Shown one piece after another: positions 392-62,564 of a stretch of 64,000 nucleotides of DNA. The position numbers and the translations under genes are program-made. The DNA is taken from IMG/VR virus record IMGVR_UViG_3300028586_000786; one strand, given 5' to 3'. Under the pieces are notes generated by a model. It did not search any database. It was not told the origin of the DNA and saw nothing but the letters and a program-made list of their open reading frames with translations. This DNA comes from an uncultured virus (IMG/VR IMGVR_UViG_3300028586_000786). Lineage: Duplodnaviria > Heunggongvirae > Uroviricota > Caudoviricetes. Each line of letters starts with the position of its first letter. The first letter of the stretch is position 1.

Positions 392-400
392 GTGTAGCGA
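392..400 (-). promoter_or_regulatory. representative copy of the recurrent upstream motif TCGCTAYAC-N5-AGG
   Basis: More than 30 copies at about 25-40 nt from start codons; see findings. Confidence 0.8.
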
Positions 401-744
401 AAAGCGCTTTAGCCTCGACAAATTGTTGCCTAAAGCTTTACTCTATATGGCAACTAGCGTAAAATGTTGCAGATGGTAAATAGGTCAGTTGTCAGAAAAT
501 TTCTCCTTTTTTTCTGACAGCTGTGGGATGCACCACCTTCGACGCGAGCGATGATACATGCTACCGAATCGGGAACTGCAGAACACGTACAACACGAAGA
601 ATCCAATGCCGCTTCAGGCCCGACCCACTTTGGGCGAACTGCTGCGGATGGGCTTTCCGCTGTGGGCCCAGGTTGTAGCTTTTACTGCATTGGCCCTTTG
701 GGCTAGCCGCCAAATCTAACTAAAATTCGACTTTCACCGTCCAG

Positions 745-1323
745 ATGAACCTCCCTCCTGCTTCCACCAAATGGCTGTGCCCGATACCTCTGCAGCTTGT
801 CCGGACCGCCGAAAGTGAGTCTTTTCGCGAGCACGGCGCGGGCGTGACCGGCTTGCCGGTGGCGCCGCATCCAGGAGGCTTTGGCGTCGTACGAGCCAAC
901 CATGTTCATGAAGGTGTGGACCTTTACTGCGCAACAGGCACCCCTGTTTTCGCAGTGGAGGCGGGGACCGTTGTGGCCGTTCTGCCGTTTACCGGTCCCA
1001 AGGCAAATTTGCCCCATTGGCTTGACACGGACGTCGTGTTGGTTGAAGGAGCTTCGGGCGTCGTCGCCTATGGTGAGATTGAACCTCATGTACGGGTTGG
1101 CGAGGTGGTGGCGGCCGGCGCGCCGCTCGGCGAGGTAATTCGCGTGCTGCGCAATGACAAGGGCCGCCCGATGTCGATGCTCCACCTGGAACTGTATGAA
1201 GCTGGCACGCGCGATGTTGTCGCGAAGTGGGAGTTGGGTGCCCCGCAGCCGGTGCAGTTGCGGGACCCAACTTGCTTCCTCGAGGGGGTGGCTCTTCCGC
1301 GCGAAGCCGCAGAAGAGATGTAG
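745..1323 (+). CDS. M23 family peptidase-like protein
   Basis: HEGVDL (HxxxD), GTPVFAVEAGTV, V.VGE.V.AG..LG and LHLE motifs typical of M23; the first His of HxH is replaced by Met. Confidence 0.75.
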   Translation: MNLPPASTKWLCPIPLQLVRTAESESFREHGAGVTGLPVAPHPGGFGVVRANHVHEGVDLYCATGTPVFAVEAGTVVAVLPFTGPKANLPHWLDTDVVLVEGASGVVAYGEIEPHVRVGEVVAAGAPLGEVIRVLRNDKGRPMSMLHLELYEAGTRDVVAKWELGAPQPVQLRDPTCFLEGVALPREAAEEM

Positions 1324-1401
1324 TCGCCTCAAAGTAATCGAGGGGGCCGACTCTGGTTTCTATACGCAGTTCAGGTATGGACCATTTGGGGAGATGAGAC
1401 A

Positions 1402-1740
1402 ATGCAGACGACGAATAAAGTGGCAGTGGGTACGGGTAAGCGGGCCAGGAAGGCCACGCGCATTGCGTTGCGCAAGGGCGCAAAGGTGTTGAGCAAGCAT
1501 GGCTTGTTGTTGGGAGCGCTCGCTTTGAGTGCGGTGTTCGCAGTGGTGTTGCCTCTTCCGCAGGCGTTGGTGCTGTCGGGCGGGGTAATGGCAAGCGCGT
1601 TCTACATCCAGGTGCGCACCGATGCCAACCGCCGGCAGTCCGTACAGGAAGCATGCGACTGGCATCTTGCTGAGTCGCACATGTTCCTCGATGGTCAACC
1701 GTTTTATGTCGGTGCAGCCGAACAGGCAGAAGCCGCATAG
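1402..1740 (+). CDS. hypothetical membrane protein
   Basis: Hydrophobic stretch; TTTCTATAC motif at 1357-1365. Confidence 0.6.
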   Translation: MQTTNKVAVGTGKRARKATRIALRKGAKVLSKHGLLLGALALSAVFAVVLPLPQALVLSGGVMASAFYIQVRTDANRRQSVQEACDWHLAESHMFLDGQPFYVGAAEQAEAA

Positions 1741-1794
1741 TGAAGTCAATGTAATTGCACGCATTCCAGAGCCGGCACCGCCGGCTCTTTTCTG

Positions 1795-2154: not shown

Positions 2155-2423
2155 GCGGTGCTCCGTTACTTTCTGTGTGGTTGAAAGCCTGGCCAGAGGT
2201 GGGGCGGCTGTGCTGGGTCGTTAAGGGCGGGTCCTGGCGGTGCCAACCGACTGGGTGCCGATAGTTCTGGCTCCGTCGGACGGTGGCGGGGCCACCGGCA
2301 GCAGTGTGGATTTTCCCTGTATAGGCCCGGGGTTTAGTCCTGCCCGTACCCCGTTAGACCCTGCTGGCGCTCGCAGCTAAAGAATTTTCGCTACACGCGA
2401 GATACTTTCCTGTGAGAGCTCTG

Positions 2424-2857: not shown

Positions 2858-3532
2858 TTACTTTTTTCGCGTGGCACGTGCTTTGCGGCCGGCTTTGCTG
2901 CGCACCAGGTTGCGTGCCTTGATGTGGGCGCGGTTGCGGACTTTGCTGCCGGCGCGAGTTCCGGTCTTGCTGCGAGCCTTCACGGGTGCTTTGAGGGGTG
3001 CCTGGGTATCGTCCGGCGCGCCTGTAGGGATATAGGCGGTCGCCGGCAAGTGGCTGCGATAGAAGAACACCCAAAGCGGGTAGCCATTGCTGGGATTGCA
3101 ATGCTCTTCAACGCGGACGAGCTCGAGTTCCGGATTGCCGTAGAAGGCCCGCAGGAATGCCTCGATTTTTGCCGGACTACGGTTGGCGAAGGAATCGCCG
3201 CCCTTGTCGTTGCCGCCTGCGAAGTGCTCTTGGCACAGTCGGCGGAACAGGCTGTAGTCGTGCTGCCAGAGGCGGTCGGAGTACACGGCGCCAGCGTCGG
3301 CCGGGGTGGTATCGAACTTCTTCCATTGCAGCATCGGGTCGTAGCTGTACGGGTGCGTGTACTTGGTGCGCGGGCCCAGGTGGAAGCCGACGACTTCGAT
3401 AGGGTTACCTCGCTTGTCACGCGGGCCCTTTCGTGGGTCGAACATGTACGGGTTGAAGTCGCCGTTCTTATCCATGATGCCGTAGTTGCCGTTTTTGTCC
3501 ATGAAGCCGCGCTGCTGGGAGTCGTAACGCAT
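2858..3532 (-). CDS. hypothetical protein with basic C-terminal tail
   Basis: ORF; GAAGGA SD; CTATAC-N5-AGGACAAC upstream. Confidence 0.7.
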   Translation of the reverse strand: MRYDSQQRGFMDKNGNYGIMDKNGDFNPYMFDPRKGPRDKRGNPIEVVGFHLGPRTKYTHPYSYDPMLQWKKFDTTPADAGAVYSDRLWQHDYSLFRRLCQEHFAGGNDKGGDSFANRSPAKIEAFLRAFYGNPELELVRVEEHCNPSNGYPLWVFFYRSHLPATAYIPTGAPDDTQAPLKAPVKARSKTGTRAGSKVRNRAHIKARNLVRSKAGRKARATRKK

Positions 3533-3632
3533 AGTGAGTTCCTTCAAGTAGTTGTCCTGTAGGGTATAGCTACTACGGCCGCGCGGAGTCGCTATACGGA
3601 AAAGGCAAATTTTTCAATCAGAGGACAATCGC

Positions 3633-4169
3633 ATGGCGACCAAGAAGCAAACGCAACAAACCCCAGATGCCCCTCGCGTAATCGGCACTGTACCCAAGAA
3701 GGTCTCGCTTCAAATCCTGGCACTGGCGAAGCTGATGCACGAGTATCAGGCAAGCATAGACTATATGGGAGAAGCTGCCGGCGTGCTGCCAGCAGGCGCC
3801 GAAGAGCTTCGTGAACAGCTCGAGCAGCTGCGTGGCGCCACGAACGCTGCTCGACTGAAGGTGCGGATTGAGCTCATTACCCTGGCGTGGGATGCGCTGG
3901 AAAAGCAGTCCGGCATCCGCAGGGGGCAGACTGTCATTCTGCAATATCGCGACCTGGGCGTGCTCGACCTGGACTGTCCGCAATTCGTCGTCAGGGAAGA
4001 GCAGCTCTATGTCAGCGGCCTGACCGTATCGGGCCCAACGCCGGAGGACTTCCGCTTCTGTCTCGAGGGCTTCCGCTTGCTGAAGAACGGCAAGCCAGGC
4101 AAGACCGAGGTCAACGTGGAAGTCCGCTCCGGCCTGAAAGTGACGCTGCTAGCTGACAGCGACGCGTAA
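3633..4169 (+). CDS. hypothetical protein
   Basis: ORF; GAGGA SD; TCGCTATAC at 3589-3597; terminator follows. Confidence 0.75.
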   Translation: MATKKQTQQTPDAPRVIGTVPKKVSLQILALAKLMHEYQASIDYMGEAAGVLPAGAEELREQLEQLRGATNAARLKVRIELITLAWDALEKQSGIRRGQTVILQYRDLGVLDLDCPQFVVREEQLYVSGLTVSGPTPEDFRFCLEGFRLLKNGKPGKTEVNVEVRSGLKVTLLADSDA

Positions 4170-4450: not shown

Positions 4451-4461
4451 TCTCGCGCCTC

Positions 4462-6738: not shown

Positions 6739-8631
6739 TTACGCTGGCATCGGCACGGCGCCGGTCGGGATTTCACCGGTAACTTCCGGGGTGGACGCGG
6801 GCTTTACCTGCGACTTGCTGCGCTTTGGAGGACGCACGGTGCGGCCGGCCATCACGTCGCTAATCTGGTCCGCGTCGATGGTTTCCCACTCGAGCAGAGC
6901 GCCGGCCATAGCGTGCATCTTGTCTTCGTTGGCGGCCAAGAGCTCCTCAACGCGCTTGTACTGAGCCACCAGCACGCTGCGGATTTCGTGGTCAACTTCA
7001 CGCAGGGTCTCCGGCGAGACGAACTGGCCGGCCGTCGGGTCAGTTTCGTTCGAAGCCAGGACCATAGGGCCCAGGACTTCCGAGTAGCCCCAGCGGGTCA
7101 CCATGTTGCGGGCAATTTGCGTTGCACGCTCATAGTCGTTCGACGCGCCAGTCGTAGCCTGGCCCATGAAGAGCACCTCGGCGACGCGGCCACCGTACAT
7201 GACGGCAATCGTGTTCTCCAGGCGTTCCTTGTCGGTGCTGTAGCGGTCGCCTTCTGGCAGCTGCAGCGTGACACCCAGGGCGCGGCCACGTGGGATGATG
7301 GTGACCATGTGAACCGGGTCCGTCTTGTCCAGCAGTTCGGCGACAATGGCGTGGCCAGCTTCGTGGTACGCAGTGTTGCGGCGCTCCTCTTCAGGCATGA
7401 CCATCGACTTGCGTTCGACGCCCAGGATGGACTTTTCCTTGGCATCTTCGAAGTCGTTCATCTGCACGTGGCGGCTGCTGCGGCGGGCTGCGAACAGCGC
7501 CGCTTCATTGACCAGGTTCCCCAGGTCGGCGCCCGACATACCCGCGGTGCCACGAGCCAGCACCGAGATGTTCACGTCTTGGCCGGCAGGGATTTTGCGC
7601 ATGTGCACCGCCAGGATTTCTTCACGGCCGCGGACGTCCGGCAGCGAAACATACACCTGGCGGTCGAAGCGGCCCGGACGCATCAGTGCCGAGTCCAGAA
7701 CGTCTGGACGGTTCGTCGCTGCGATGACGATGACACCCGATTCCTTCTCGAAGCCATCCATTTCGACCAGCAGGGCGTTCAGGGTCTGTTCACGCTCGTC
7801 ATTGCCACCGCCATGGCCCTGGCCGCGCTGACGACCGACTGCGTCGATTTCGTCGATGAAGATGATGGCTGGGCCCTTGGCCTTGGCTTTCTCGAACAGG
7901 TCACGAACGCGGGAGGCGCCGACACCGACGAACATCTCGACGAAGTCTGAGCCAGCGATGGAGAAGAATGGCACTTTGGCTTCACCGGCGATGGCCTTGG
8001 CCAACAGGGTTTTACCCGTGCCTGGCGGACCTGCGAGCATGACGCCCTTAGGGATGCGGCCGCCCAGTTTCTGGAACTTGGCCGGATTGCGCAGAAACTC
8101 GACCAGCTCGCGCACTTCGTCTTTTGCTTCATCGCAGCCTGCGATGTCCGCAAAGGTCACGTCTTCAGTCGACGGCGCCTTTTCTTTGGCCTTCGTCTTG
8201 CCGAAGCCTGCCTGCGGGTTGCCTTTGGCGCCGCTCTGGCGCTTCATCATGAAAATCCACAGGCCAGCGAGCAGCACGATGGGGCCGAAGGCCAGGAGCA
8301 TCTGCCAGGCAGCGCCACTGTCGGCAGCTGTGCTGACTTTTGGGCCTGCCACATCGACGCGTGCTTTCACCAGTTCAGGCACGAACGTCGGGTCGGGAAC
8401 TGGGTTGACGCGGACCGTCTTGCCGTCTTTGTACATACCGATAGTGCCCTCAGGGGACACCGTCGCCTTGAAGACCTTGCCGGCTTGCGCGTCAGTCAGG
8501 AAGGCCGAGTGCGAAATCGTTGCAGTTGGTTTTGCCGGAGCTGCATCCTCCAGGAACGAAAAGGCCAGTGCGGCGCAGATGCCTGCTCCAGCAATGATTC
8601 CCATGATAGTTTTTTTGTTCATCAGGCGCAC
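6739..8631 (-). CDS. ftsH: ATP-dependent zinc metalloprotease FtsH
   Basis: Two N-terminal TM segments, Walker A GPPGTGKT, Walker [24 protein letters not shown] zinc motif. Confidence 0.97.
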
Positions 8632-9043: not shown

Positions 9044-9280
9044 TACAGGAGTCCTCTGAAGTTACGGGCGAGGGAGTGGGGTGCAACAATGCTACTGTAA
9101 CATGAACTGAAATGAGTTGGAAGAAATATATCGCGCTCGGCAATACGGGTAAGTTGTTGTAATTGAAAGATAATATGGGATATAGAGGCGGCGTCTTTTA
9201 GCGCACTAGCAGCACAATCAGCTGCTAGCAGACGGACGATTTTCTGTGGCTACACGAGGTTTACCTTCCTGGAGAATCTC

Positions 9281-9601: not shown

Positions 9602-9763
9602 ATATTGATGACTGAGGGCGGAGAGGGCTGCAGATGCAGCCCTTTTTGCTTTAGAGCCGTCACAGATAAGTTAGCGCGGCTACACGCCACTGTTCTCACA
9701 CGCGCCTTCATCCCGTGTCGCTACACATTGAAGGTCACCCCAATATAGAAAAGGATTGTAATT

Positions 9764-12004: not shown

Positions 12005-12155
12005 GAGTTCTCCTGGTAATAGATGGGGGTCCTAAGCTGTATAGCGAGAGACCGTCCCGGCGTCTACATTTAGAGGGAAGTCCTCCACGATGCGCGAGGG
12101 GAAGCTGCCAATCCGTGACGCATGGAGGTGGGTGCATAGCGGAGGGGAGGGGGAT

Positions 12156-14560: not shown

Positions 14561-14669
14561 GCGCGTCGTAGCCCTGTGAAGTAGTAGCAGCGCCGGCCCC
14601 TAAAGCCGGCGTTGTGGTTTGTGCGTCCTAGCGACCTATACTGGGGAGGACAACTCTTGAAAGACTTCC

Positions 14670-17348: not shown

Positions 17349-17509
17349 TGTGTTCCTTCAGGGTTGTCCTGAAGCGTGTAGCGAAGCGCCAAACGGCCTA
17401 TTCGGCCAGCGCTCAACGCTCAGCCGGATGCTAACCGGTTAGGCGGGAGCTTCCTGTTCTGCGCCAAGGAAAACCCGCCGGCGTGAAGCCGGCGGGTTTG
17501 GTATCAAGC

Positions 17510-22642: not shown

Positions 22643-22686
22643 TACTGGTCAATTATTGAGGTGTACGAGGTATAGCCCCGAAGCCC

Positions 22687-22961: not shown

Positions 22962-23130
22962 TGGGACCTCGGGTATAGGGGACAGAGTGGTATAGCGAAA
23001 AACTTTATATACCCAGGGCCAGTGGGATGGCCTAACATCCCTAGGCTTGTGGTTCGTGGTGCCACGAACCAGCCTATGCGGCCGGACTGGTTCTACGGCC
23101 GAGCTAGCGAAGATTGCACTTCAAAACAGC

Positions 23131-25275: not shown

Positions 25276-25398
25276 TCGGCATCACCTTCAATCGAAAGCC
25301 TCGCCCCTTCCCCGGGTGAGGCTTTTCATATCCGGAAGCCGGCGAACCCGATAAGCGCACATTTCTACACGAGGTAAGGACCTCACAAGGAGAATGAT

Positions 25399-26361: not shown

Positions 26362-26489
26362 CCTCCCCAGTTCGCCTCGCCAGCAGCATTTTCACGACCT
26401 CCGCGAACCGGAGGTCTTTTTTCGGCTGAACACGTGCCGTGCCGGCCGACGGGAGCTATACATCGTAGGACAACATTTAAGGACTCATC

Positions 26490-27330: not shown

Positions 27331-27504
27331 AATGTTCTTTCAGGGTCGCTCGGCGACCGTAAGGGTTCGGTCACGTGTAGGCACGAATGCCCATCTCTAA
27401 AAGAGATATTTTACCTTACTGAAAAGGAAAAAGCCACCGGGAGGGTGGCTTTGAATGAACGCGGTAGACCAGAGCCCAGCGCGAGGATACTTTTATGGAC
27501 CTGG

Positions 27505-28754: not shown

Positions 28755-28826
28755 GGATGTCCTTTGGTAGGGGGTCTACCGAGTGTAGCCACCTCCTGGA
28801 GCAGCTGCACGCTCTAGGCGGCCAGG

Positions 28827-31667: not shown

Positions 31668-31730
31668 GTGTAGCAACGCCAGAATAGCGCAGCTCTACAC
31701 TACGCTCCTACAACTGTTTGAGGGATTCGA

Positions 31731-33461: not shown

Positions 33462-33523
33462 GCCAAGCCGTAATCCGCAATCGGTCAGGCGGCTACCTGA
33501 CCGATTGCGGATTACGGCTTGGC
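33462..33523. repeat. perfect 28-bp inverted repeat with 6-nt loop
   Basis: GCCAAGCCGTAATCCGCAATCGGTCAGG-CGGCTA-CCTGACCGATTGCGGATTACGGCTTGGC. Confidence 0.9.
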
Positions 33524-33718
33524 GACGTGGCGCAGCATTTCCTTGCCTACTTTCCCGGCCGCGATTTCACGCAGAGCCATCACGGTAGGCTTGCCTTTGC
33601 CTTCAACCTTGGCGGTATGGCCTTTAATCAGCTGGCGCGCACGGTAGGTAGCGGCCAACGTCAGCTCGAACCGGTTAGGCATCTCTTTCAAGCAATCTTC
33701 AACAGTAATGCGGGCCAT
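33512..33718 (-). CDS. rpoZ: RNA polymerase omega subunit
   Basis: [10 protein letters not shown]...NRFEL.L.A..RARQL...[12 protein letters not shown]. Confidence 0.95.
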
Positions 33719-33941
33719 GAGGCCTCCATGGAAATGGGGTGGGGGAGCAGTTTAGCGTACTTGCTTGCGGGAGAAAAGTCGCGTCACTAAAAGTGTTGGC
33801 TAGGATATGAAGCGGTGTGTACGTGACGTATAGGGGCAAGGTTTAGCCACTCTGTGGGGGTTCTGCTCGGTACGGCACTGTCCAGAAAAACGCCCTGCAG
33901 GTCCGGAGACGGGCAGGGCGGTTGAATCGTGATGCGGTAGC

Positions 33942-34400: not shown

Positions 34401-34545
34401 GGCTTCCTTTCGATGAGGTGTTGAGATGTCCTAGTCTAGTGTAGCGATTTGACATTGACGTTGCCGTTGCCGTTGCCCGGGCATGGCCGGCAAAGAAAAA
34501 CCCCGCGCTTGGGAAAGCCACGGGGTTGGTCAATCAGGGTAGCGC

Positions 34546-35037: not shown

Positions 35038-35148
35038 AGGGTCCTTGAGGGTAGTTGGCCTTCCAGGTATAGCGAACTGGCGCGGGCGCCGTCTAAAGGG
35101 CGGTCGCTAGACTTAGATTCCCCTCATACTCTAAAGGATGCTTCCAAG

Positions 35149-39181: not shown

Positions 39182-39297
39182 ACGGTCCTTTAGGTAGGGG
39201 TTCTCTGGCGTATAGAAAGCGGAACCTATACGGGTTCGCGGTACCCATTGGAGCTTGGCCACACTTCCCGAGGCCAATCCACTTACAAGGACATTTC

Positions 39298-41460: not shown

Positions 41461-41624
41461 GATTCTCCTGATAATAAGGTTGTTTTCCTTCTTCGTATAG
41501 CGCCAGCGGTGGTGCGGGAGGAGACCGTCCGGAGTCAGAAGCAGGAAAACGCATGGGGCAAGAGCGGTCGCCAAGAAGAAGGCGTCTCTACACTGGCCAA
41601 GACCATTTCAATAGGAACAAGGCC

Positions 41625-43084: not shown

Positions 43085-43265
43085 AGGGGTGCCTCGCGGC
43101 GTCAGGGCAGTGAATTGTGTGTAGCGTTATCTTTTATATTGCACTGCAGCATTCACATTGGACCGATTTTTACTTGCGATTTTGAATACATTCTAGTAGA
43201 CTGTACAAAGCTGACTGTATAGTTCGCCTACCTGATAAGCCGCGCTTCACCAAAAAGAGGGACCC

Positions 43266-45280: not shown

Positions 45281-45430
45281 TCAATTTCCTCTATTTTGGT
45301 TAGTAACTCGTTTTCACGTAGTCAGGTGAACAGGTTGTGTCCTCTGAGGTATAGCAAGCGCATGTCCAAGAGCCTAGCTAGAGCGAGCTCGCATCAGTTC
45401 ATGCCGGGAGCAGCGTTGCCGGCGCTATAC

Positions 45431-46291: not shown

Positions 46292-46432
46292 TTTGACGTT
46301 CTGATTTCCAAGCGCCCCGTCTCCGGGGCGCTTTTCTTTGGACTGCAGCGCCGCAACAGCAGCCTATTATTGCTTTACAGAAAGCCGATTCTAAAATATA
46401 CTGGCTGTAATGATTATCAACCGGAATTGACT

Positions 46433-48127: not shown

Positions 48128-48186
48128 ATAGCCGGGGCACCATGGCTATACGCAGTTCTAGGCCAACTGACAACTCCAAGGACCCC

Positions 48187-48873: not shown

Positions 48874-49002
48874 CAATTTCTCTTCTTGGTTCAGCAAGCG
48901 CCTCGATTCTTCGGAACCGGGGCGTTTTCCTTTACGGGCGCTTGAGGGCGGTATCGCTATACAGGAGCTTAGGACATCTGAACCACAACGAAGGACGACT
49001 AC

Positions 49003-49704: not shown

Positions 49705-49869
49705 TTCGGAACACCTGCATCAATTCCAGCCACCGCTTATGCGGTGGCTTTTTCCGTTTGTTGCTTGCTTTTACTAAAAGAGTTATCCGTCTTTACGAGG
49801 TGTTGTCATTCATGTAAAATGTGTCAACAGCTCATAGACGAGCTTTCCCTTGTTGAGTAAAAGGCCATC

Positions 49870-51294: not shown

Positions 51295-51361
51295 GTGTAG
51301 GTACTAACTAAATTTAAAAGTACGGACTACACCTAATCCTTCGACTCATCCAGAATCACCA

Positions 51362-51613: not shown

Positions 51614-51675
51614 CGCTGCGCTGCCACGGATTCCCGGTTCCTAGACTACTCTTTCTCCTACGAGGACATCTCATC

Positions 51676-51885: not shown

Positions 51886-51998
51886 CCAGTGACACCGCTC
51901 TTGCGGTGCGCTAAATTCGTTCCCTAAGCGCCGCCGCCCGCGGCGCTTTTCCTTTGGGCGCGAGCTATACCAACCAGGCAACCATGAAAGGAAAAGCC

Positions 51999-52409: not shown

Positions 52410-52502
52410 GCACGTGATTCCCCACGCCCTGATTCTTCAGGGCGTTTTTCTTTGGGAATCGCTATACAGAGCTTGAGACCAATTTACCTGTGAGGACTAT
52501 TG

Positions 52503-52997: not shown

Positions 52998-53127
52998 GCC
53001 ATTTTCGCAAGAATATCTTTTCAAGCCGCCCCTCCCGGGCGGCTTTTCTATGCGCCCAACAAGACCCACGAAATGAAAAGACCGCCCCGAGTCTTGTGAC
53101 AGAGGGCGGCTTGGTTGAATCAGGCGG

Positions 53128-53562: not shown

Positions 53563-53690
53563 GAGTGTCCTTTGAGAAGGGGTGCCAGGGGATACCTGCA
53601 GTGTAGCGAAGGGTAGTGTCCGTACCTCCTGCCGCCCGGCCCTGAACAGCGATTCGCTATACTGAAAAGGACAATTACTTCGAAGGCTAT

Positions 53691-53942: not shown

Positions 53943-54070
53943 AGACATGTTCTTCTTCAAAGCCAGCATTTGCTGGCTTTTTCTTTTACGTGTGCCACAG
54001 GCAAGCGCTCCGAACGGATAAGTACGAGCGTCTATACATCCCGACCCTTAATTCGCTCGGGACCTTATCC

Positions 54071-54961: not shown

Positions 54962-54975
54962 ACCGAGAGTCGTCA

Positions 54976-55284
54976 ATGAGCACTTTCGTATATGAGCCGC
55001 TCGGTCGACTCGCTAAGGCCGTTGCCAAAACCGGTGTCCTGCCGGTCCGCGCAGTTGCAGCCGTGGCCGCATTGCTCTTACCGCTAGGCGTTCACGCACC
55101 AGCGGACGCTGCCGGCGCCGCGCGATTTGAGGTGAGCTTCGTCATTCGGGCCGAGTGTACTGTCAAAGCTACTGAAGCAAGGGTTCCCACTGTCGAGTGC
55201 AATGGCACAAGTCCCTATCGGATTTCGCCTACGATGACCCCAGGCGCAGGGTTCCGAAGCGCTGGCTGGACCATCACATTTTAA
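54976..55284 (+). CDS. small secreted protein, Csu/spore-coat-U pilin-like
   Basis: Signal peptide then F.VS..I..EC.V and terminal I.F. Confidence 0.45.
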   Translation: MSTFVYEPLGRLAKAVAKTGVLPVRAVAAVAALLLPLGVHAPADAAGAARFEVSFVIRAECTVKATEARVPTVECNGTSPYRISPTMTPGAGFRSAGWTITF

Positions 55285-55290
55285 GTCCAC

Positions 55291-55878
55291 TTATCGAAGT
55301 GCGGTGCTTGGCACTTGCGACGCGAGCGACTGCACAATCGTCCGGGTGTTCGCGCTCGCCAGCGCCAGCGCCTCCGGCGTGCCTGTCAATGGCGTCCATC
55401 GCCCGTTGTCCAGCACCTCGACCGTGAGAGAGCCTAGCGTCTCCAGGTCGAGGGGAACCTGGTCCAAACAGCCCCACCATTGATTTGGCTGCGCCCCTAC
55501 TGACAGCCCCGCCATTACCATCTGATGCACGTCCTTTGAGTCGATACCTGCAACCAAGGGTAGTCGCGACCAGGGCAGCAGCTTGATGTCTGCTGGACTG
55601 AGCGAGTCTAGGCGCTTTGTGTTCAAGCAGAAGCGATAGCACCCCACGATTTCGTGAAGTTTTTCCAGCGGCGGCCGGCCGTAGGTCTTCCCGCGGTCCA
55701 GGCTGATGAGCTTCGTGGCCGTAGGTTCCCAATGCGGGTTGGTGGACCACCACAGAATGGGTTTTTCTCGGGCATTGACGGCTTTGCCGAAACCGAAAGG
55801 CTTCAGGTATCCGCTATCCGAAATCAGGCCAATCTTTGGGCCGACGGTATAGTGGTACAAGAGGTCTGGAATCTTCAT
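55291..55878 (-). CDS. putative ADP-ribosyltransferase-fold protein
   Basis: LYHYT...I..SG.LKP...LWWSTN. Confidence 0.45.
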   Translation of the reverse strand: MKIPDLLYHYTVGPKIGLISDSGYLKPFGFGKAVNAREKPILWWSTNPHWEPTATKLISLDRGKTYGRPPLEKLHEIVGCYRFCLNTKRLDSLSPADIKLLPWSRLPLVAGIDSKDVHQMVMAGLSVGAQPNQWWGCLDQVPLDLETLGSLTVEVLDNGRWTPLTGTPEALALASANTRTIVQSLASQVPSTALR

Positions 55879-56002
55879 GCGGAGCCTGTAAAACCTAAGG
55901 AGGCTAACACTTTGCCATAGACTTGGCCTAAAGGGAAGGCCAGGGTTAGGGCCCACAAGCAATTACCTACACAGAAGAGGTCAAATTCTAAAAGGAGCAT
56001 CC

Positions 56003-56896
56003 ATGTCATCCGTTACCCCTGAAAATCGTCCCGAAGTTCGTATTCATGACGCAACCGTTAACATCTGGTGCGAAGACCCGTTTTCCGAGCAAGTCAAGAG
56101 CATCTTCAAGGCCGTGAAGGCCTTGCTCAATCGTCGCGGCTTCTCCCTCGGCCCGGACCCTGTTGTCCATCATCGAATCCTCGTGAAGACGCATCGTGCT
56201 GGCAAGGCGGGGGACCTCGAGGTGGCAGCGAGTTTGTCTGGTCGGCACATCGAAGTCCAGTTCTTCCAGAACGTCCACCAGGTGCAAAATCCGAATGGCG
56301 GCAGGTACGACTTCGATAAGCTCGCGCGCATGCCTTTCCTTTTGCGTAAGCGCGCGCAGCTGGAAATGAACAAGGTACGGGAGCTGTTGGTCAGCAAGTT
56401 TGGCGCCTCGGTGACGAAAGGTGACGTTCCGTTGCCTCACCCAAACCGGTCGACGGCTGTCGAGTTCATCGAGGCTCGCAACCGTGGCAGTGGGCACTTC
56501 AAGGCTGAGTTGGGCCATGCAGACTGGTACGCTGACTACAACCGTCAAACCGGCGACCGCCAGCTGCTTACGCATGGCACGCCCGTGTACTTCCGCGACC
56601 GTAAAGGCCGCTGGGCTTGCGGCGTTGCGTACTACAACCTGAACAACATGTGGTGGGTTGCAGTCGGTAAGTATGAGGTACGCAATCTGTGCTCGACGGA
56701 CCTTTTCGTCAGGCCGCCTCTCAATGTTCGCCTGAAGGCCAATCTGGCGCTGAGCATCAAAAGGGTTGCGACTCTCATCAAAGAAGCAGTAGCGGCGGAG
56801 GATTTCCTGCGCGCCCAGCAGCTCAAACTCGTGCGTGACCGTCTGCAAGCTCAAGAGGCCGCGGCGGTGGCGGCGCCTGAGCTGGCCGAGGCATAG
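56003..56896 (+). CDS. phage/plasmid-type hypothetical protein with C-terminal UVR-like helix
   Basis: AAGGAG SD; AV..EDF.RA..LK; CTACAC-N5-AGG upstream. Confidence 0.7.
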   Translation: MSSVTPENRPEVRIHDATVNIWCEDPFSEQVKSIFKAVKALLNRRGFSLGPDPVVHHRILVKTHRAGKAGDLEVAASLSGRHIEVQFFQNVHQVQNPNGGRYDFDKLARMPFLLRKRAQLEMNKVRELLVSKFGASVTKGDVPLPHPNRSTAVEFIEARNRGSGHFKAELGHADWYADYNRQTGDRQLLTHGTPVYFRDRKGRWACGVAYYNLNNMWWVAVGKYEVRNLCSTDLFVRPPLNVRLKANLALSIKRVATLIKEAVAAEDFLRAQQLKLVRDRLQAQEAAAVAAPELAEA

Positions 56897-56943
56897 CCGT
56901 TTTCAACAAGCCTGGGACTTCGTTCCCAGGCTTTTCTTCGTGC

Positions 56944-57468: not shown

Positions 57469-57618
57469 CGACCGTATAGCAGGTGGGGTTTATGCTCACG
57501 AGGCATGTTTGCTGGCGCGCAACACATTTCAGGCATCCTCTAGCTTTAGCGTGATTGCGCTTGGGCAATTAAAGGAATTCAGTTACGCTGTTCTTTACCT
57601 TGATTGAAGAGAGCGTTC

Positions 57619-57960
57619 ATGTCAAAAGCTGAAAGGCTAGCTGCCCTCAAAGCTGATATCGCACAGAGCCGCACTGCAGGGGAACTCGGCCATCCTGAGA
57701 TATGCAGTGTTATCGCGAATATTCGTAAAACAATGGCAGCTCACGGATTGACGCCGGCGCACCTCGGCTTCGACCTGACGCCGCAGCCTCGAAGGCAGCC
57801 TGTGCCCTCGCGCCGAGTAGGTGCGGGAGTGGTGCGATTTCAAGACCCAGCGTCGGGTAAAACATGGACTGGGTTTGGGAAGCCACCGGCATGGATTGCC
57901 GGCGCCGATAATCGGGAAATGTTTCGCATCAAGGACGGCACAGCCGGAGTTAGGGCTTGA
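57619..57960 (+). CDS. hns: H-NS family nucleoid-associated protein
   Basis: F.DP.SGKTWTGFGKPPAWI C-terminal motif. Confidence 0.85.
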   Translation: MSKAERLAALKADIAQSRTAGELGHPEICSVIANIRKTMAAHGLTPAHLGFDLTPQPRRQPVPSRRVGAGVVRFQDPASGKTWTGFGKPPAWIAGADNREMFRIKDGTAGVRA

Positions 57961-58038
57961 GCTTAGGGATACTGGGTTCGCTACACCGTATAGGCCCGGT
58001 GTCTCAGCCGAATTTCCCCACTCTTTCAGGAACTACCA

Positions 58039-58266
58039 ATGAGCCTTGCTCTCGCCCGACAAATTCCTTCTGGCGCCGAAGTTACCGTGACCCTTACCAG
58101 CGGTAAATCCTTCAGCGGCCGCGAAGCTTCGTCACCCGCTCAGCGCGACGACGAGCTGTTACAGCTCGAGAAATACCTGACCATCTCCGGCGCCAATGGC
58201 GACAAGCAGCTGTTCATCGCCAACTACAAGGATATCGCCAGCATCGAGATGAAAGCAATCCGCTAA
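58039..58266 (+). CDS. small protein, possible Sm/LSm-like fold
   Basis: G..VTVTL.SG..F.G...LLQL...IASI; TCGCTACAC at 57978-57986. Confidence 0.5.
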   Translation: MSLALARQIPSGAEVTVTLTSGKSFSGREASSPAQRDDELLQLEKYLTISGANGDKQLFIANYKDIASIEMKAIR

Positions 58267-58340: not shown

Positions 58341-59333
58341 TTAGCTTCCGGTCCACCAGCGGTACCCTGCAGGGATGCATGTTTTTCCAGACTGAGCGAA
58401 GAACGCAGTGATGGTAGTTGCCGAGTCAAAAGTACGGAACCCGACAACAGGCCGAACGGCTCCAGCGGAGGCCCATTTCACCGTTGTGACGACGGTGCAG
58501 GAGGTGACGTCATAAATCGTCATTGTGCGGGCGCCGATGTCGGCTGCGAAGCCATATCGTGCTGTCGAGGAGCTTTGAAGAGTTGCCCGCCCGGAAGGCG
58601 TAACGCCCGCGCTTCCGCTTCCGAAGACATTGCGGTCCCGGTACATCAGGTCCACGTAGTAGCCTCCGCCGCCAGGTAGATAGGTGCTCAGGGCCCCTTT
58701 TCCTGTCGACTGCATTTCCCAGTACCATGTTCCGCTGGTCTTGCTGTTAGCAAAGGGAACGTCCGCAGTCTTGCCGCCAGGCGTTGAAACCGTCGTTGCG
58801 TTATTGCTGTACGTCACCGAGGGAATCCCCAACTGGAACGTTCCTGGCGTGGTGGCCGTGGCACCTGCAAAGGTAGCGGTCAGAGGGGAGGCCCCTCCGC
58901 CCAGCGCGATTGACAAGCTAGCGTTCGAAGAAGACTCCGCCTGGTTGTTACGGTACGAAACGGTGAACGTGCAGCTCGCATTGGGCAGCAAGTTAGCGGC
59001 GCATGACTCGTTGGCGGTAGTGAAGGGGGTGCTTATTGAGCCGAACGAGAGGGTGGCCGGTGACGTTCCCGTGTTCGATAGCGTGAAAGCCTTCGTCACC
59101 GACTGGCCCGCAGCGACCGTACCAAAATCCCACACATTTGGAGACAAGCTTACTTGTGGGGGCACCGGGGCCGGAGCGGGCGCAGGCTTTTCCGGCGCGA
59201 CAGGAGCGGGGCCGCTGGCGCTTGCCGCTTTAATGCCTTGTGCATGCACGCGCATCTCGTACGGGGTGCTGGCCTGAGCCGTCATTACTGAGGTCAGCAG
59301 TAGGGCTGACAGAATCGTATTGCATTTTTTCAT
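58341..59333 (-). CDS. secreted protein with one choice-of-anchor-D Ig repeat and a SPRY-like domain
   Basis: Signal peptide; WDFG.V......F.L.NTG; KTSGTWYWE...YGFA.D. Confidence 0.75.
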   Translation of the reverse strand: MKKCNTILSALLLTSVMTAQASTPYEMRVHAQGIKAASASGPAPVAPEKPAPAPAPVPPQVSLSPNVWDFGTVAAGQSVTKAFTLSNTGTSPATLSFGSISTPFTTANESCAANLLPNASCTFTVSYRNNQAESSSNASLSIALGGGASPLTATFAGATATTPGTFQLGIPSVTYSNNATTVSTPGGKTADVPFANSKTSGTWYWEMQSTGKGALSTYLPGGGGYYVDLMYRDRNVFGSGSAGVTPSGRATLQSSSTARYGFAADIGARTMTIYDVTSCTVVTTVKWASAGAVRPVVGFRTFDSATTITAFFAQSGKTCIPAGYRWWTGS

Positions 59334-59441
59334 TAAATTGTCCGGCGAAGGTGAATCGGTATCTGGGTATAGCGACATACGCGGAGGCGTCGGTCACGAG
59401 AAGTGCGCACCCACCGACGCCAAAGACGCCGGACTATACGC

Positions 59442-60338: not shown

Positions 60339-60402
60339 CTAAGTCCAGAGTGAGGGGAAGAATCAATGTAGCCATCGGATTTATTGCCGTGGTGCCACAG
60401 CG

Positions 60403-60786
60403 TCAGATAGTATCCAAGTAGCAAGTGCGCGGGAGGCCCTCGTCGAAGAGCGCTTCGTCGAAATAGCTGACGACCACGTGTGGCAACTCCCTCTTTACGG
60501 CGCAAGCAATGGACAGGCCCTCACGGGCGAAGGCTGAGCGTGTGGCGGCATTGGCTTCGCCGGCGGGATTGCTGAGAATGTCACGCTCGAACCAGATAAT
60601 CCATGCAGTCAGGCGGGCGCGTAGCTCCACAGAAAGGCCAAACGCCTCAGGGTCGCACTCGCGCACGGGAACGTCACGCCAGGCGCCGCCAGCAGGTGTC
60701 CGGGGCGTCCAGAGGCCGTTCGAGGCGAACTCGGCCATTACACGCAGATGGAACGGGGCAGTGCCGGGGTGGGGGAGGGCGGTCAT
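60403..60786 (-). CDS. hypothetical protein
   Basis: LRVMAEF...LW...LS.EL...L..W pattern. Confidence 0.55.
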   Translation of the reverse strand: MTALPHPGTAPFHLRVMAEFASNGLWTPRTPAGGAWRDVPVRECDPEAFGLSVELRARLTAWIIWFERDILSNPAGEANAATRSAFAREGLSIACAVKRELPHVVVSYFDEALFDEGLPRTCYLDTI

Positions 60787-60986
60787 GAGTAGTCTTTCAG
60801 GAATAGCGGCAGCATCTGGACGAAGCCAGAGGGCGCGGCGCCGGCGGGATGCCAGTGCAATTCTTGAAGACAGCCCGACTGAGAGAGTGCGGGGGGGCAG
60901 GCGGTATATCGCATGTTGCTTATATGTGCGACTCGATGCCAAGAAAAAGCCGTGCGCGCAAGGATGCGGCACGGCTATGAAGGGTG

Positions 60987-62498
60987 TTACTGCGGGTCTT
61001 GACCTGACGTACCAAGTGCCCAGATAGTGACTCGGCCGGTAGCCGGATGCACCTTGACGGATTGGCCCGGGCTGAGCTTGGAGCAGGCTCCGTCCATGCG
61101 CATGATTGGCTTGTCCTGCTCGCGGCAGACCGTCACCAGGTGAGCGAGACGTCCGCCCGCTTCGCAAACAACTGCACCGGCCGCCATCGCCTGGAGTTCG
61201 AACTCAACACCTGCATGGGGCACCACGAGGATGCTGTTGCGGTCGATATTCTCGCTGTCGGCAAATACGACGGTTCCCGAAACTTCCGGGCCGCGCGCCA
61301 GCACCTGCACTTCGAAGTTGAGCAATGTGCGCTGTACTTCGAACATCATGTCCAGGATAGCCCGATACTCACGGCTGTCATGGCGATAGGTCTTGGCGTC
61401 GATGGCGAAGCCGCAACCGAGCCAGACGTCCGTATGGAACGGGTTGTCCTCAGCCGTCTTGAAGCTGTCCGGGCTGATTGCCTCGTATTGCGGCATCAGG
61501 GCATGGGCCGACGTCTGCGAGAGCGCGTAGCAGTACAACGCCCGCTTTGGTGCCCGCAGGGACAAGTACGTACCATCCTTCGGGTCGCGCCAGCGATAGT
61601 CCTGCCAGCCGTACTCGCTGTCGCCATCGGCAAACGCAGTGATGCGTTCACGCAGCGCCAGAGCTTCTGCTTGTTGGCGGGCGGCGAAGGCTTCCGATGC
61701 TGCATGTTCAGCAGCGAGCTTTGCTTCCAAGTCCTGCTGTTCTTCCGCAGAAAGGGAGGCTGTGGCCGCGACCGGCTCAGGCTTTGCTGCTTCGTCCGGA
61801 TGGATGAAGCCATAGCGCTGGGCATAGCCGCTGGTAGGCAGGTAGCTGCGCGCCGACTCATACGCCTTCTTGAAGCAGGTGTTGTCGTTTTCGCGCCAGA
61901 AGGGTGCTACCCCTTCGGCGACCTGGCGGAACAGAACGATTACGTCATTCTGCCGGGTGCGGCTCATCAAAATGGCTCGGTCGGTGCGCGGATTGTCGGC
62001 GTAGTGCATGGCACGCAGCTCCAGGGAGCGAGCTGGCAGAACAGTCGCGTATGCCGACTTCGCGTACACCGATTCCAATTCCGACGTCCATCGTTCACGC
62101 CTGACGAAGCAAGGCATTGCACTGTCCCGGTACTCCGGCAGTGCCAGTGCATGGTGGAAGTCGGCCTTGCCCAGTGTGTCAAGCACCAAGTAAGGCTCGT
62201 ACATCACTTTGCCGTCCCGGACGAACTGGCCCAGGCAATATTCGGCGGTGTATCGCTCCTGCAGCTGCTGCATGACGTCAGGGTCTTCCGCCACCATCAG
62301 GATGGTGTCGTTTTCGCCTGTCAGCTTGAAGCGGCCTTCGATGATGCCAATGGCTTGGTCGTAGCTCATGCCGACCAGGTTGTCGACCAGGTGGGCGAGG
62401 GCGCCTTTCCAGTCGCCATCACCCATGCGCTCGCGCGCTTGTTCGGTCAGGCTGGCACCGCGGATGGTAAAGGAAATCATGTGGCTTGTAACGGTCAT
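60987..62498 (-). CDS. unknown domain fused to PEP-utilising mobile domain, paralogue 2
   Basis: GAVVCEAGGRLAHLVTVCRE; full-length similarity to 39982-41460; TCGCTACAC-N5-AGGACAAC upstream. Confidence 0.8.
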   Translation of the reverse strand: MTVTSHMISFTIRGASLTEQARERMGDGDWKGALAHLVDNLVGMSYDQAIGIIEGRFKLTGENDTILMVAEDPDVMQQLQERYTAEYCLGQFVRDGKVMYEPYLVLDTLGKADFHHALALPEYRDSAMPCFVRRERWTSELESVYAKSAYATVLPARSLELRAMHYADNPRTDRAILMSRTRQNDVIVLFRQVAEGVAPFWRENDNTCFKKAYESARSYLPTSGYAQRYGFIHPDEAAKPEPVAATASLSAEEQQDLEAKLAAEHAASEAFAARQQAEALALRERITAFADGDSEYGWQDYRWRDPKDGTYLSLRAPKRALYCYALSQTSAHALMPQYEAISPDSFKTAEDNPFHTDVWLGCGFAIDAKTYRHDSREYRAILDMMFEVQRTLLNFEVQVLARGPEVSGTVVFADSENIDRNSILVVPHAGVEFELQAMAAGAVVCEAGGRLAHLVTVCREQDKPIMRMDGACSKLSPGQSVKVHPATGRVTIWALGTSGQDPQ

Positions 62499-62564
62499 GG
62501 GGGTGTCCTTGGAAAAAGTAGTTGTCCTCGTAGGTGTAGCGATTGCTCCGGCGAGTTGCTAGAC

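Follow-up and report, generated by a model that had tools for sequence, protein, structure and literature searches.

The late promoters of phage T4 (TATAAATA) are a phage-private class without a -35 element and are read by gp55. On IncP-1 plasmids, operators for KorA and KorB recur in many backbone promoters; these are palindromes bound by repressors and are found in about a dozen promoters. Promoter-bearing single-gene cassettes are represented by phage morons and by the PeSL units of T4-like phages. The fuller consensus of promoters recognised by RpoS (sigmaS) is KCTAYRCTTAA. In the available text of PMC11784136 the RpoS -10 motif is given as CTATACT, and the box described below equals this motif minus its last T. 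Among plasmids, the available text of PMC7313664 describes the Variovorax tRNA-carrying megaplasmids pPBL-H6-1, pSRS16-1, pPBL-E5-1 and pWDL1-1; the words promoter, sigma and motif are absent from that text, and no description of the motif was found in print.

Genomic context of the window

The window, the whole 64-kb stretch of DNA analysed here, is a piece of a megaplasmid-type element, and its identity as a phage is rejected. It sits within a metagenomic contig of 453,991 bp that is kin of the Variovorax tRNA-carrying megaplasmids (pPBL-H6-1, 839 kb). Homologs on pPBL-H6-1 were identified for 20 of the 74 window proteins (tblastn, E<=1e-5; 25-65% identity), the relationship between the two being distant and without synteny; local gene order is common to pPBL-H6-1 and the relatives L006 and L022. 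No repB-parAB module, tra genes or tRNA array were identified within the 64 kb (0 tRNAs); as these modules may sit elsewhere on the contig, membership of the broad family is judged from gene content and the motif only. The uncultured relatives are contigs of 0.4-1.5 Mb. No family could be assigned to about three quarters of the genes, and the element family is one of giant, ORFan-rich megaplasmids of soil Burkholderiales in which most genes are unknown.

Consensus and placement of the motif

The consensus is T-N-GCTAYAC-N5-AGGACAAC, without a -35 element. The observation of the earlier note is confirmed, the motif being strongly intergenic and well above chance. The window contains 20 copies of CGCTAYAC; its dinucleotide shuffles have 2.79 on average (sd 1.80, max 9), and 0 of 100 shuffles reached 20. 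Unbiased 6-mer enrichment ranked CTACAC top (17 observed, 1.1 expected), and a matrix of two blocks, built from 55 plasmid sites, gave 20 window sites of at least 14 bits compared with 1.1 in shuffles. According to our own gene model, 28 of the 32 GCTAYAC copies are intergenic, intergenic DNA being 19% of the window, and 21 of the 32 have a same-strand gene start at most 60 nt downstream. With gene starts from our own codon-usage gene caller rather than curated annotation, 31 of the 74 predicted genes, about four in ten, have CTA.AC in the sense interval -60 to -15; the antisense count was 3, and that for intragenic control windows 0 of 54. The motif is asymmetric and always points at a gene at a promoter-like distance, with back-to-back copies in divergent gaps at 3564/3590 and 53601/53655. 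The boxes in the window are as follows.

379..400, minus strand: box TCGCTACAC-N5-AGGCCCAA, 28 nt before the ATG of ORF 1-363
2388..2409, plus strand: box TCGCTACAC, no AGG half, TAAAG upstream; before the L5-gp82-like gene 2412-2777
3551..3572, minus strand: box AGCTATAC-N5-AGGACAAC, before ORF 2858-3547; back to back with the 3589..3610 site
3589..3610, plus strand: box TCGCTATAC-N5-AGGCAAAT, before ORF 3633-4169
9247..9268, plus strand: box TGGCTACAC, before ORF 9281-9601
9718..9739, plus strand: box TCGCTACAC-N5-AGGTCACC, before thymidine kinase 9764-10348
12026..12047, minus strand: box TCGCTATAC-N5-AGGACCCC, before ORF 11273-12004
14633..14654, plus strand: box ACCTATAC-N5-AGGACAAC, before ORF 14670-15125
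17363..17384, minus strand: box TCGCTACAC-N5-AGGACAAC, before ORF 16650-17348
22657..22678, minus strand: box GGCTATAC, before the 1710-aa Ig-repeat protein 17510-22642
22977..22998, minus strand: box TCGCTATAC, TAAAG upstream, no AGG half; before a 67-aa ORF
25362..25383, plus strand: box TTCTACAC-N6-AGGACCTC, before ORF 25399-26361
26453..26474, plus strand: box AGCTATAC-N5-AGGACAAC, before ORF 26490-26771
27362..27383, minus strand: variant box GCCTACAC, before PTH2 gene 26890-27330
28770..28791, minus strand: box TGGCTACAC, before ORF 28350-28754
31692..31713, plus strand: box CTCTACAC, before ORF 31731-31988
33737..33759 (approximate), minus strand: variant box CGCTAAAC, about 31 nt before the omega (rpoZ) gene
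34426..34447, minus strand: box TCGCTACAC-N6-AGGACATC, before ORF 33942-34400
35054..35075, minus strand: box TCGCTATAC-N5-AGGCCAAC, before ORF 34546-35037
35104..35125, plus strand: variant box TCGCTAGAC, TAAAG upstream; before thioredoxin 35149-35454
39197..39218, minus strand: box TTCTATAC, before the ORF ending at 38411; ATG 28 nt downstream
41482..41503, minus strand: box GCGCTATAC-N5-AGGAAAAC, before PEP-utilizer-like gene 39982-41459; kept in orthologs
41585..41606, plus strand: box TCTCTACAC, before ORF 41625-41990
43106..43127, minus strand: box ACGCTACAC, before ORF 42401-43084
45336..45357, minus strand: box TTGCTATAC-N5-AGGACACA, upstream of ORF 44123-45280
48143..48164, plus strand: box TGGCTATAC, before ORF 48187-48873
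48954..48975, plus strand: box TCGCTATAC-N8-AGGACATC, before ORF 49003-49704
51962..51983, plus strand: box AGCTATAC-N5-AGGCAACC, ATG 13 nt after the core
52459..52480, plus strand: box TCGCTATAC, right after terminator 52424-52445, before ORF 52500-52997
53588..53609, minus strand: box TCGCTACAC, before ORF 53128-53562; back to back with the 53654..53675 site
53654..53675, plus strand: box TCGCTATAC-N5-AGGACAAT, before ORF 53691-53942
55964..55985, plus strand: box ACCTACAC-N5-AGGTCAAA, before ORF 56003-56896
57978..57999, plus strand: box TCGCTACAC-N5-AGGCCCGG, before ORF 58039-58266
59354..59375, minus strand: box TCGCTATAC, before an Ig-domain ORF; ATG 33 nt downstream
62521..62542, minus strand: box TCGCTACAC-N5-AGGACAAC, before PEP-utilizer-like paralog 60987-62498

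Each of the 28 positions listed in the earlier note has a sense CTAYAC core within 8 nt, and an ORF of at least 50 aa starts 13-40 nt past the core. The spacing proposed there, 25-40 nt with a mode of 27-28, fits 23 of the 28 (mode 28; 8 at 28 nt and 2 at 27 nt) and fails at 2388, 3564, 31692 and 51962, which lie at 13-17 nt under a first-start rule. The exact N5-AGGACAAC was recovered at all five sites named for it (3564, 14633, 17376, 26453 and 62534). TAAAG, reported upstream of several copies, is found 11-13 nt before the G at 4 of 32 GCTAYAC sites (0.28 expected), and AGGAC is missing at 3 of 4 TAAAG-type sites; the copy at 35104 is a CGCTAGAC variant, and the one listed at 24463 falls inside a predicted CDS and scores low.

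No column 5' of the T exceeds 0.35 bit, in agreement with the earlier observation that no -35 is evident, and neither the window nor the plasmid logo has an informative column upstream of -16 that could represent a TTGACA hexamer at 16-18 nt. A consensus promoter scan gave 9 sites, the expectation for 44-64 kb being 5.8 +/- 2.4, and the sigma54 signature (GG at -24, GC at -12) was not seen, there being no conserved GG 10 nt upstream of GC. In seed-defined sites the -12 T and -11 A are invariant by construction; with the AGG half as anchor instead, their frequencies are 0.57 and 0.64. When 47 plasmid upstream regions were aligned on AGG[AT]C[AC]A, C-T-A-N-A-C emerged at a fixed distance, with column frequencies of 0.57-0.64. 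G at -14, C at -13 and the TAYAC core are present in both logos. The likeness to the sigmaS extended -10 CTATACT with a variable -7, recognised previously, holds in that the GCTAYAC core matches and the -7 T is not kept: this position is G 0.63, C 0.23, A 0.13 and T 0.01 on the Variovorax plasmid, and is unselective in the window (T in 12 of 36 boxes). The pair AT at -8,-7 was observed 20 times on the plasmid (1.8 expected), and the box variants GCTATAAT and GCTAAAAT, of canonical type, were found in the same contexts. The distance from AGGACAAC to the box is fixed (N5, sometimes N4 or N6), while that to the start codon varies. AGG, earlier suggested as the start site, does sit at the expected start position, making it a predicted start.

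Distribution among related and host-like replicons

GCTAYAC-N5-AGG occurs 39 times on the 839-kb Variovorax megaplasmid, whereas three other large replicons of sister strains (1.59 Mb; two chromosome-like chromids and one plasmid, serving as proxies for the host chromosome) have 0, 0 and 1 copies, which argues for a replicon-private promoter class; the reversed-pattern control gave 0, 3, 2 and 2, in the same order. In intergenic upstream windows, CTA.AC was found in 174 of 647 on the megaplasmid (24 antisense); the chromid had it in 3 of its 198 such windows (1 antisense), and GCTAYAC in none of them. The earlier view of the motif as private is thus sustained at the level of the element family: it is abundant on the megaplasmid and essentially absent from the host-like replicons.

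The motif is spread over the whole Variovorax megaplasmid and stands upstream of genes in uncultured relatives, with GCTAYAC densities of 4-7 per 10 kb. Orthologs of the PEP-utilizer gene in the window, L001, L002, L003, L006 and the Variovorax plasmid have CTAYAC-N5/6-AGGACA in the same place, with diverged flanks. Two RNA genes of the Variovorax plasmid, one for tmRNA and one a cluster of 5 tRNAs, show a CTATAT-type box but lack AGGAC (n=2), so the second half may be an mRNA signal and not part of the promoter.

Terminators and gene units

Classical hairpin-plus-T terminators lie 3' of genes, including the following.

46310..46343, plus strand: intrinsic terminator, 10-bp stem and T tail, ending the unit 45539-46291
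49728..49759, plus strand: intrinsic terminator, ending the unit 49003-49704
53959..53990, plus strand: intrinsic terminator, ending the unit 53691-53942
56908..56943, plus strand: intrinsic terminator, ending the unit 56003-56896

A further terminator at 52424-52445 is followed by the box at 52460, placing a promoter box directly after the end of the upstream unit. Shine-Dalgarno cores lie 6-12 nt before start codons, and AGGA resembles them. Judged from the sequence, one gene would correspond to one unit made up of promoter, leader of about 20 nt, ORF and intrinsic terminator. L001, L002 and L003 are collinear and differ by whole gene units gained or lost, each with its own box. Of the 73 pairs of adjacent genes in the window, 31 involve a strand switch. 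When one indel was aligned base by base, similarity resumed upstream of the box, with the breakpoints in the spacer between units.

Search for polymerase and sigma genes

The earlier note had invoked a sigma factor or RNA polymerase encoded by the element; this has so far gained no support from searches that covered the 64-kb window of the 454-kb contig and the complete Variovorax megaplasmid. One RNAP gene was found in the window:

33512..33718, minus strand: homolog of the RNA polymerase omega subunit (RpoZ), 68 aa

Omega is not a specificity subunit. A copy 91% identical is carried by a relative contig of 1.12 Mb, and no omega gene is present on the complete Variovorax megaplasmid. A six-frame profile search of this megaplasmid, the one complete relative, recognised neither an RNAP nor a sigma factor: Sigma70 region 2 and ECF-type sigma were not found, region-4-like matches were limited to IS21 transposase and XRE-type HTH proteins, and beta and beta' (PF00562, PF00623) were absent, 14 of 14 controls being positive. 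The T7-type RNAP profile PF00940 had no match there, the control genomes being equally silent and thus no positive control. No plausible ORF with D[FY]DGD, the catalytic loop expected of an own multisubunit RNAP, was found. The Pfam scan covered 150 of the 669 mid-sized proteins of the Variovorax plasmid. The sole sigma-like match in the window, PhyR_sigma2, was below threshold (E=0.033) and has no PDB relative.

Interpretation and alternative explanations

T-N-GCTAYAC-N5-AGGACAAC is probably a family-private promoter class read by host RNA polymerase with a sigma70-family factor. The reader would be the bacterial multisubunit enzyme of the host, its sigma70-family factor binding GCTAYAC as a -35-independent extended -10 (G-14, C-13, T-12, A-11, A-9, C-8). 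Transcription would start at the purines of AGG, AGGACAAC would be the initially transcribed sequence and 5' end of a leader of about 20 nt running into the Shine-Dalgarno site, and an intrinsic terminator would close each gene to give one-gene transcription units. Enrichment, strand, spacing, intergenic bias and conservation before orthologous genes argue for a promoter; the hairpin-plus-T terminators, the lack of beta and beta' on the complete relative, which also gave no match to the T7-type profile, and the omega copy point to a host-type polymerase. Box variants of canonical type and the match to the RpoS -10 motif speak for a sigma70-family factor. That the sigma is the host's (RpoS-like or RpoD) is more likely than that it is element-encoded, but this is the weakest step. 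The G/C at -7 on the Variovorax plasmid and the unselective -7 in the window are atypical of group 1 and group 2 sigma factors, and ordinary host-sigma promoters would not be expected to retain +1 to +8 between elements with orthologs only about 43% identical. A host sigma would also be expected to read some host-like genes with the box, and the 0 of 198 chromid windows with GCTAYAC counts against this.

The same promoter might instead depend on an element-encoded specificity factor beyond profile recognition, either a minimal sigma like T4 gp55 or an RNAP-retargeting protein, possibly with its own omega. We regard this as possible though rather unlikely. The privacy of the motif, the missing -35 and unselected -7, the downstream half kept over deep divergence and the omega copies of the window's element and its 1.12-Mb relative are in its favour, and the genes without family leave room for such a factor; the negative sigma, beta and beta' searches on the complete megaplasmid, its lack of omega and the subthreshold PhyR_sigma2 match speak against it. 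More tentatively still, these plasmids of 0.4-1.5 Mb could carry a semi-orthogonal system in which an element-encoded sigma-like or retargeting protein, possibly with its own omega, steers the host core polymerase to the motif. If so, hundreds of plasmid genes would be switched on jointly and insulated from host regulation, a phage-like takeover in a plasmid.

A reading in which the -10-like box is the promoter but polymerase does not recognise AGGACAAC is unlikely; the word would then be an operator for a regulator acting plasmid-wide, or a signal at the mRNA 5' end, either an SD-like AGGA loading or parking ribosomes or one protecting the 5' end. The RNA genes with boxes but no AGGAC, the Shine-Dalgarno likeness of AGGA and the TAAAG-type sites lacking AGGAC would suit this reading. 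However, the RNA-gene evidence is n=2, the fixed distance to the box and variable distance to the start codon fit a start-site role at least equally, and AGGACAAC lacks the palindromic form typical of operators for dimeric repressors. Finally, a recombination site for inserting or exchanging single-gene cassettes, the alternative offered earlier, might account for the whole-unit differences and frequent strand switches, but is very improbable given that the breakpoints of the one indel examined lie outside the motif, that the motif is asymmetric and gene-pointing at promoter-like distance, and that no integrase was seen in the 64-kb window.

Significance

Giant plasmids full of unknown genes turn up in many bacteria, and one family of them appears to have a promoter 'dialect' of its own, which precedes about a quarter to 40% of the family's genes and is absent from neighbouring host-like replicons. 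Since cultured members exist (Variovorax sp. PBL-H6, SRS16, PBL-E5 and WDL1), the reader of the promoter is directly addressable. The motif could serve as a marker for spotting fragments of these elements in metagenomes, for fixing gene starts in ORFan-rich sequence and as a source of compact promoter parts for Burkholderiales.

Comparison with known promoter systems

The motif shares with RpoS extended -10 promoters the C-13, the G-14, TAYAC, a dispensable -35 and, by prediction here, a purine start a few bases downstream. It differs in that the -7 T is not kept (G/C on the Variovorax plasmid, no preference in the window), in lacking an A/T-rich discriminator, in its conserved +1 to +8 word AGGACAAC and in its restriction to one replicon family. 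Like T4 late promoters, it is a short -10-type box without a -35 that stands before many genes of one mobile element and is absent from host genes, whereas its sequence is another one, the complete relative yielded no sigma factor, gp55-like or otherwise, and its element is a plasmid with no sign of temporal classes.

As in the IncP-1 Kor regulons, one cis-element repeated in many promoters could coordinate expression of a whole replicon; unlike the Kor operators, the motif is asymmetric, stands before some 100-200 genes and itself resembles the core promoter. Morons and PeSL units resemble the units described here as promoter-gene-terminator units gained and lost among relatives, the differences being that the motif is not at the one breakpoint examined and that the carrier is a megaplasmid. 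The pPBL-H6-1-type megaplasmids differ from the window's element in rpoZ, present on the latter and lacking on the Variovorax plasmid. They resemble it in a GC content below that of the host, many hypothetical proteins and genes for translation and RNA repair (PMC7313664), and they carry the same promoter motif.

A box upstream of window genes

The motif T-N-GCTAYAC-N5-AGGACAAC, in which a -10-like half is followed by an AGG-type half, stands upstream of genes across the window. The 64-kb window has 20 copies of CGCTAYAC; 100 dinucleotide shuffles averaged 2.79 ± 1.80 copies, and none reached 20. An unbiased count of 6-mers upstream of window genes was headed by CTACAC, TCGCTA, GCTACA, GCTATA and CTATAC. 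Using a gene model based on self-trained codon usage (74 genes, 81% of the window), 28 of the 32 GCTAYAC copies were found to be intergenic and 21 of the 32 were aimed at a gene start at most 60 nt away. CTA.AC was present between -60 and -15 on the sense strand of 31 of the 74 genes, on the antisense strand of three, and in none of 54 intragenic controls. The copies are laid out as t-CGCTAYAC, five free bases, AGG(A/C)C(A/C)A(A/C), a Shine-Dalgarno-like AAGGA and ATG. All 28 positions listed for the core in the earlier note carry it in sense orientation, 13–40 nt upstream of ORFs that are 50 aa or longer (eight at 28 nt, two at 27 nt), and the five exact N5-AGGACAAC cases that it named were all correct. 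Its statement that a -35 was not evident also agrees with our alignment: no column upstream of the T was informative at the window sites, and the motif is thus considered to have no -35 element. Variant boxes of a wider -10 family, TGTATAAT, TGCTATAAT, GCTATAAT and GGTATAAT, stand before four window genes, including ftsH.

Relationship of the window to Variovorax megaplasmids

About three quarters of the window ORFs had no Pfam or PHROG family, PHROG matches were few, and the 64 kb contained no tRNA genes. The recognized ORFs encode an FtsH paralog, thymidine kinase, PTH2, an ADP-ribosylglycohydrolase, a GltS-type FMN domain, a histone-deacetylase-type enzyme, an H-NS-like protein, T5orf172 and a 1710-aa Ig-repeat protein. 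Shine-Dalgarno cores precede the start codons, indicating bacterial translation, and run metadata place the window in leaf-litter metagenomes. Searches of phage and plasmid collections with 17–23 kb of the window gave no blastn matches, an exact 40-mer of the window was missing from IMG/VR and GTDB genomes, and single-protein scans of IMG/VR and metagenomes detected no relative; alignment scans identified none in GTDB genomes and one marginal match in IMG/VR.

A protein search located the window's PEP-utilizer-like protein on a 453,991-bp contig; its relatives came from contigs as large as 1.2 Mb and from Variovorax isolates, in which the replicon measures 839 kb. By tblastn against PLSDB, a homolog with 43% identity was found on 'plasmid 2' of Variovorax sp. 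PBL-H6, SRS16 and PBL-E5, in a neighbourhood (RNA ligase, PEP-utilizer-like gene, outer-membrane barrel, A24 peptidase, glyoxalase-superfamily gene) that is mirrored by the metagenomic locus L006. These replicons are the 'tRNA-carrying megaplasmids' of Ozturk et al. (2020; PMC7313664), described there as about 800–840 kb in size, with a GC content of 62.5% (chromosome 67%), a novel repB-parAB module, tra genes, a full tRNA array and a type I-E CRISPR system. Twenty of the 74 window proteins matched the Variovorax plasmid at 25–65% identity, at positions scattered along it, and the window is thus a distant member of the same broad kind of element. A first reading of the window as a jumbo phage was dropped once this homology appeared.

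Further genes of the window and the cultured megaplasmid pPBL-H6-1 were as follows.

6739–8631, minus strand: full-length FtsH paralog, 60–64% identical to Burkholderiales FtsH and 70–85% to copies from further metagenome contigs; the gene is preceded by TGTATAAT, not by the private box.
17510–22642, minus strand (1710 aa), and 58341–59378, minus strand (345 aa): ASH/HYDIN/DUF1573 Ig-like repeats; giant proteins akin to the former occur at L006, at L018 and on the Variovorax plasmid.
39982–41459 and 60987–62498, both minus strand: paralogs with a C-terminal PEP-utilizer swivel domain, a family common to the megaplasmids and, at about 29% identity, phiCbK-like Caulobacter jumbo phages.
57604–57960, plus strand: small protein with an H-NS C-terminal DNA-binding domain, which could be a plasmid-borne 'stealth'-type silencer.
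NZ_LR594660.1, 414,963–415,312 and 763,008–774,751: tmRNA gene besides a 42-gene tRNA array; the gene stock of this megaplasmid also includes PARP+WGR, Rad52, thymidylate synthase, a CCA/polyA polymerase head domain, queuosine salvage and RNA repair.

The motif on the megaplasmid and in uncultured relatives

The complete megaplasmid contains 173 copies of GCTAYAC, of which 109 are intergenic (intergenic DNA being 17.5%) and 85 lie within 70 nt of a same-strand start, with a sharp mode of the distance at 25–34 nt; the reversed word gave 184 copies, 26 of them intergenic and eight near a same-strand start. The logo was that of the window, namely T, N, GCTAYAC, a preferred G, N4 and (C)AGGACAAC, with a blank -35 region, and anchoring on the downstream half alone recovered the upstream half at a fixed spacing. 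A two-block matrix built only from 55 plasmid sites found 20 window sites scoring at least 14 bits, against 1.1 in shuffles. A wider -10 family, [G/C]CTA-N-A followed mostly by C or G, was observed 311 times in upstream windows of the plasmid against 43.7 expected; canonical ...AAT endings (20 against 1.8 expected) were enriched about equally to other endings. In the window, TAAAG lies 11–13 nt upstream of four of the 32 sites (392, 2389, 5964 and 22990; also 35105), and these boxes have a T-run reaching the box and, in three of the four, no AGGAC half. On the plasmid TAAAG was upstream of two of the 173 sites, without enrichment of the subclass.

An alignment-based scan of metagenome contigs returned 20 related loci. 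GCTAYAC reached densities of 4–18 per 10 kb at L001, L002 (410-kb contig), L003 and L018 (1.46 Mb), L004, L006 (667 kb) and L015 (1.12 Mb), many copies being complete, with GCTAYAC-N5-AGGACAAC followed by a Shine-Dalgarno sequence and ATG. Upstream of the PEP-utilizer orthologs, CTAYAC-N5/6-AGGACA occupies the same place in the window, L001, L002, L003, L006 and the Variovorax plasmid, in fully diverged surroundings; L005 was left out of this comparison and L019 had no match. On the L015 contig (1,119,147 bp), genes of the element type (a DUF5710/HerA-like gene, a PEP-utilizer homolog and boxed ORFans) have type IV pilus genes (PilY1, PilW) on one side and PBP2-RodA on the other; the contig may be a chromosome into which an element has integrated, or else cell-envelope genes are part of the cargo of very large elements.

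Confinement to the element family

Chromids of sister strains served as proxies for the host chromosome. According to PMC7313664, pPBL-E5-2 and pSRS16-3 resemble the chromosome in GC content and codon usage and count as chromids; the strains they come from also bear the megaplasmid. GCTAYAC-N5-AGG was found 39 times on the megaplasmid, against none on pPBL-E5-2 (553 kb), none on pSRS16-3 (479 kb) and one on the plasmid pSRS16-2 (561 kb); the reversed pattern gave 0, 3, 2 and 2 in the same order. Over 400 kb of chromid, 13 of 53 GCTAYAC were intergenic, which is the background share, and none lay within 70 nt before a start. In truly intergenic upstream windows, CTA.AC occurred in 3 of 198 on the chromid (antisense, 1) vs 174 of 647 on the megaplasmid (antisense, 24), and the two-block matrix found eight chromid sites of at least 14 bits against 2.4 in shuffles. 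Scanning IMG/VR for the exact pattern yielded at least 120 single matches, with T at -2 in 12 of the 120 listed and the Shine-Dalgarno–ATG layout absent; these look like chance occurrences in coding sequence, in about the number that we estimate for chance. The motif is, we conclude with good confidence, private to the element family.

The 910-kb plasmid of Pseudomonas sp. FeN3W, whose homolog is only 27% identical, was rejected as a motif bearer (16 matches against 10 in the control, no enrichment). Its promoters pair TTGACA with TATAC-type -10 boxes; the C at -8 may thus be common to the wider superfamily, but not the -35-less layout. This plasmid, of 48% GC, has a similar gene style (locus L104; CP136011.1, 717,546–730,967), with an EF-Tu copy, RNase H, aminoacyl-tRNA hydrolase and a PEP-utilizer homolog.

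Probable promoter function and candidate readers

The box always faces a gene, stands back-to-back in divergent gaps and can directly follow a terminator; terminators directly end genes, and strand switches between neighbours are frequent (31 of 73 pairs in the window, 307 of 881 on the plasmid). On these grounds we regard it as the core promoter of one-gene units, and that it is a promoter is highly probable. Seven strong hairpin-plus-T terminators directly follow plus-strand genes at 44–57 kb of the window. The terminators have the following features.

44035–56943, plus strand: terminators with a common tail, TTTTCTTTGG, and often an AAGCGCC...GGCGCTT stem.

A host multisubunit polymerase would transcribe from the box, since the intrinsic terminators are classical and genes for beta, beta' and T7-type RNAP are lacking on the complete relative; for the T7-type enzyme, control genomes were equally silent in that profile search. 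On a sigma70-family register the box would read G-14, C-13, T-12, A-11, Y-10, A-9 and C-8. With the T placed at -12, AGG would fall at about -2 to +1; in an alternative register with A as +1, -1 would be mostly C and +2 would be G.

A host sigma factor is the likelier reader of the box, and an unrecognized element-encoded factor a possible but less likely one. No Sigma70 region 2 or ECF-type sigma was detected on the cultured megaplasmid, where region-4-like matches corresponded to an IS21 transposase and XRE-type proteins, and a Pfam scan of 150 of the 669 plasmid proteins revealed no transcription factor of note. A PhyR_sigma2 match in the window was discarded as a sigma candidate, being below threshold. 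Of the private regulon with an element-encoded reader proposed in the earlier note, privacy is borne out by the replicon counts, whereas the reader is not, as no recognizable sigma, beta or beta' gene was found on the complete relative. The window does encode a polymerase subunit.

33512–33718, minus strand: RNAP omega subunit (RpoZ), 68 aa; PF01192, E=1.5e-18; PDB omega chains down to 2.5e-14.

The product is a genuine omega subunit, 75–82% identical to RpoZ of Burkholderiaceae and Oxalobacteraceae and 91% to the copy on the 1,119,147-bp relative contig. A CGCTAAAC box precedes the gene, which does not adjoin gmk or spoT-like genes; 31 nt downstream lies a 195-aa ORFan with no matches in the protein atlas. 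The Variovorax plasmid has no omega gene.

The downstream half may be read differently. On the plasmid, CCTATAT and GCTATAT boxes stand upstream of the tmRNA gene and of a cluster of five tRNA genes (n=2), with no AGGAC. For this reason AGGACAAC may act as a signal in the mRNA leader and lie outside polymerase recognition; its spacing, fixed to the box and variable to the ATG, fits both this and recognition by the polymerase. We see no sign that the motif is a crossover site of moving gene cassettes, the recombination alternative raised earlier: gene units are seen to move, L001, L002 and L003 being collinear and differing by whole gene units, but in the sole indel aligned the sequences become similar again upstream of the box, leaving the motif outside the crossover.

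Comparison with known promoters

No description of the motif was found in the main text of openly accessible articles on megaplasmids and promoters, and motif words returned primers only. The words promoter, sigma and motif do not occur in the Variovorax megaplasmid paper (PMC7313664), and a term search of PMC12613071 and bioRxiv 10.1101/2025.09.30.679422 found no description of it. We class the motif as a replicon-private, -35-less promoter class on giant plasmids for which no earlier description was found. The likeness to sigmaS promoters with an unkept -7 T, pointed out in the earlier note, holds, the box being the RpoS-type -10 CTATACT (PMC11784136) without its last T. From ordinary host-sigma promoters it differs in the missing -7 T and in the conserved word at +1 to +8. 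Some phages also have a replicon-private, -35-less promoter class, whereas here it is found on giant plasmids.
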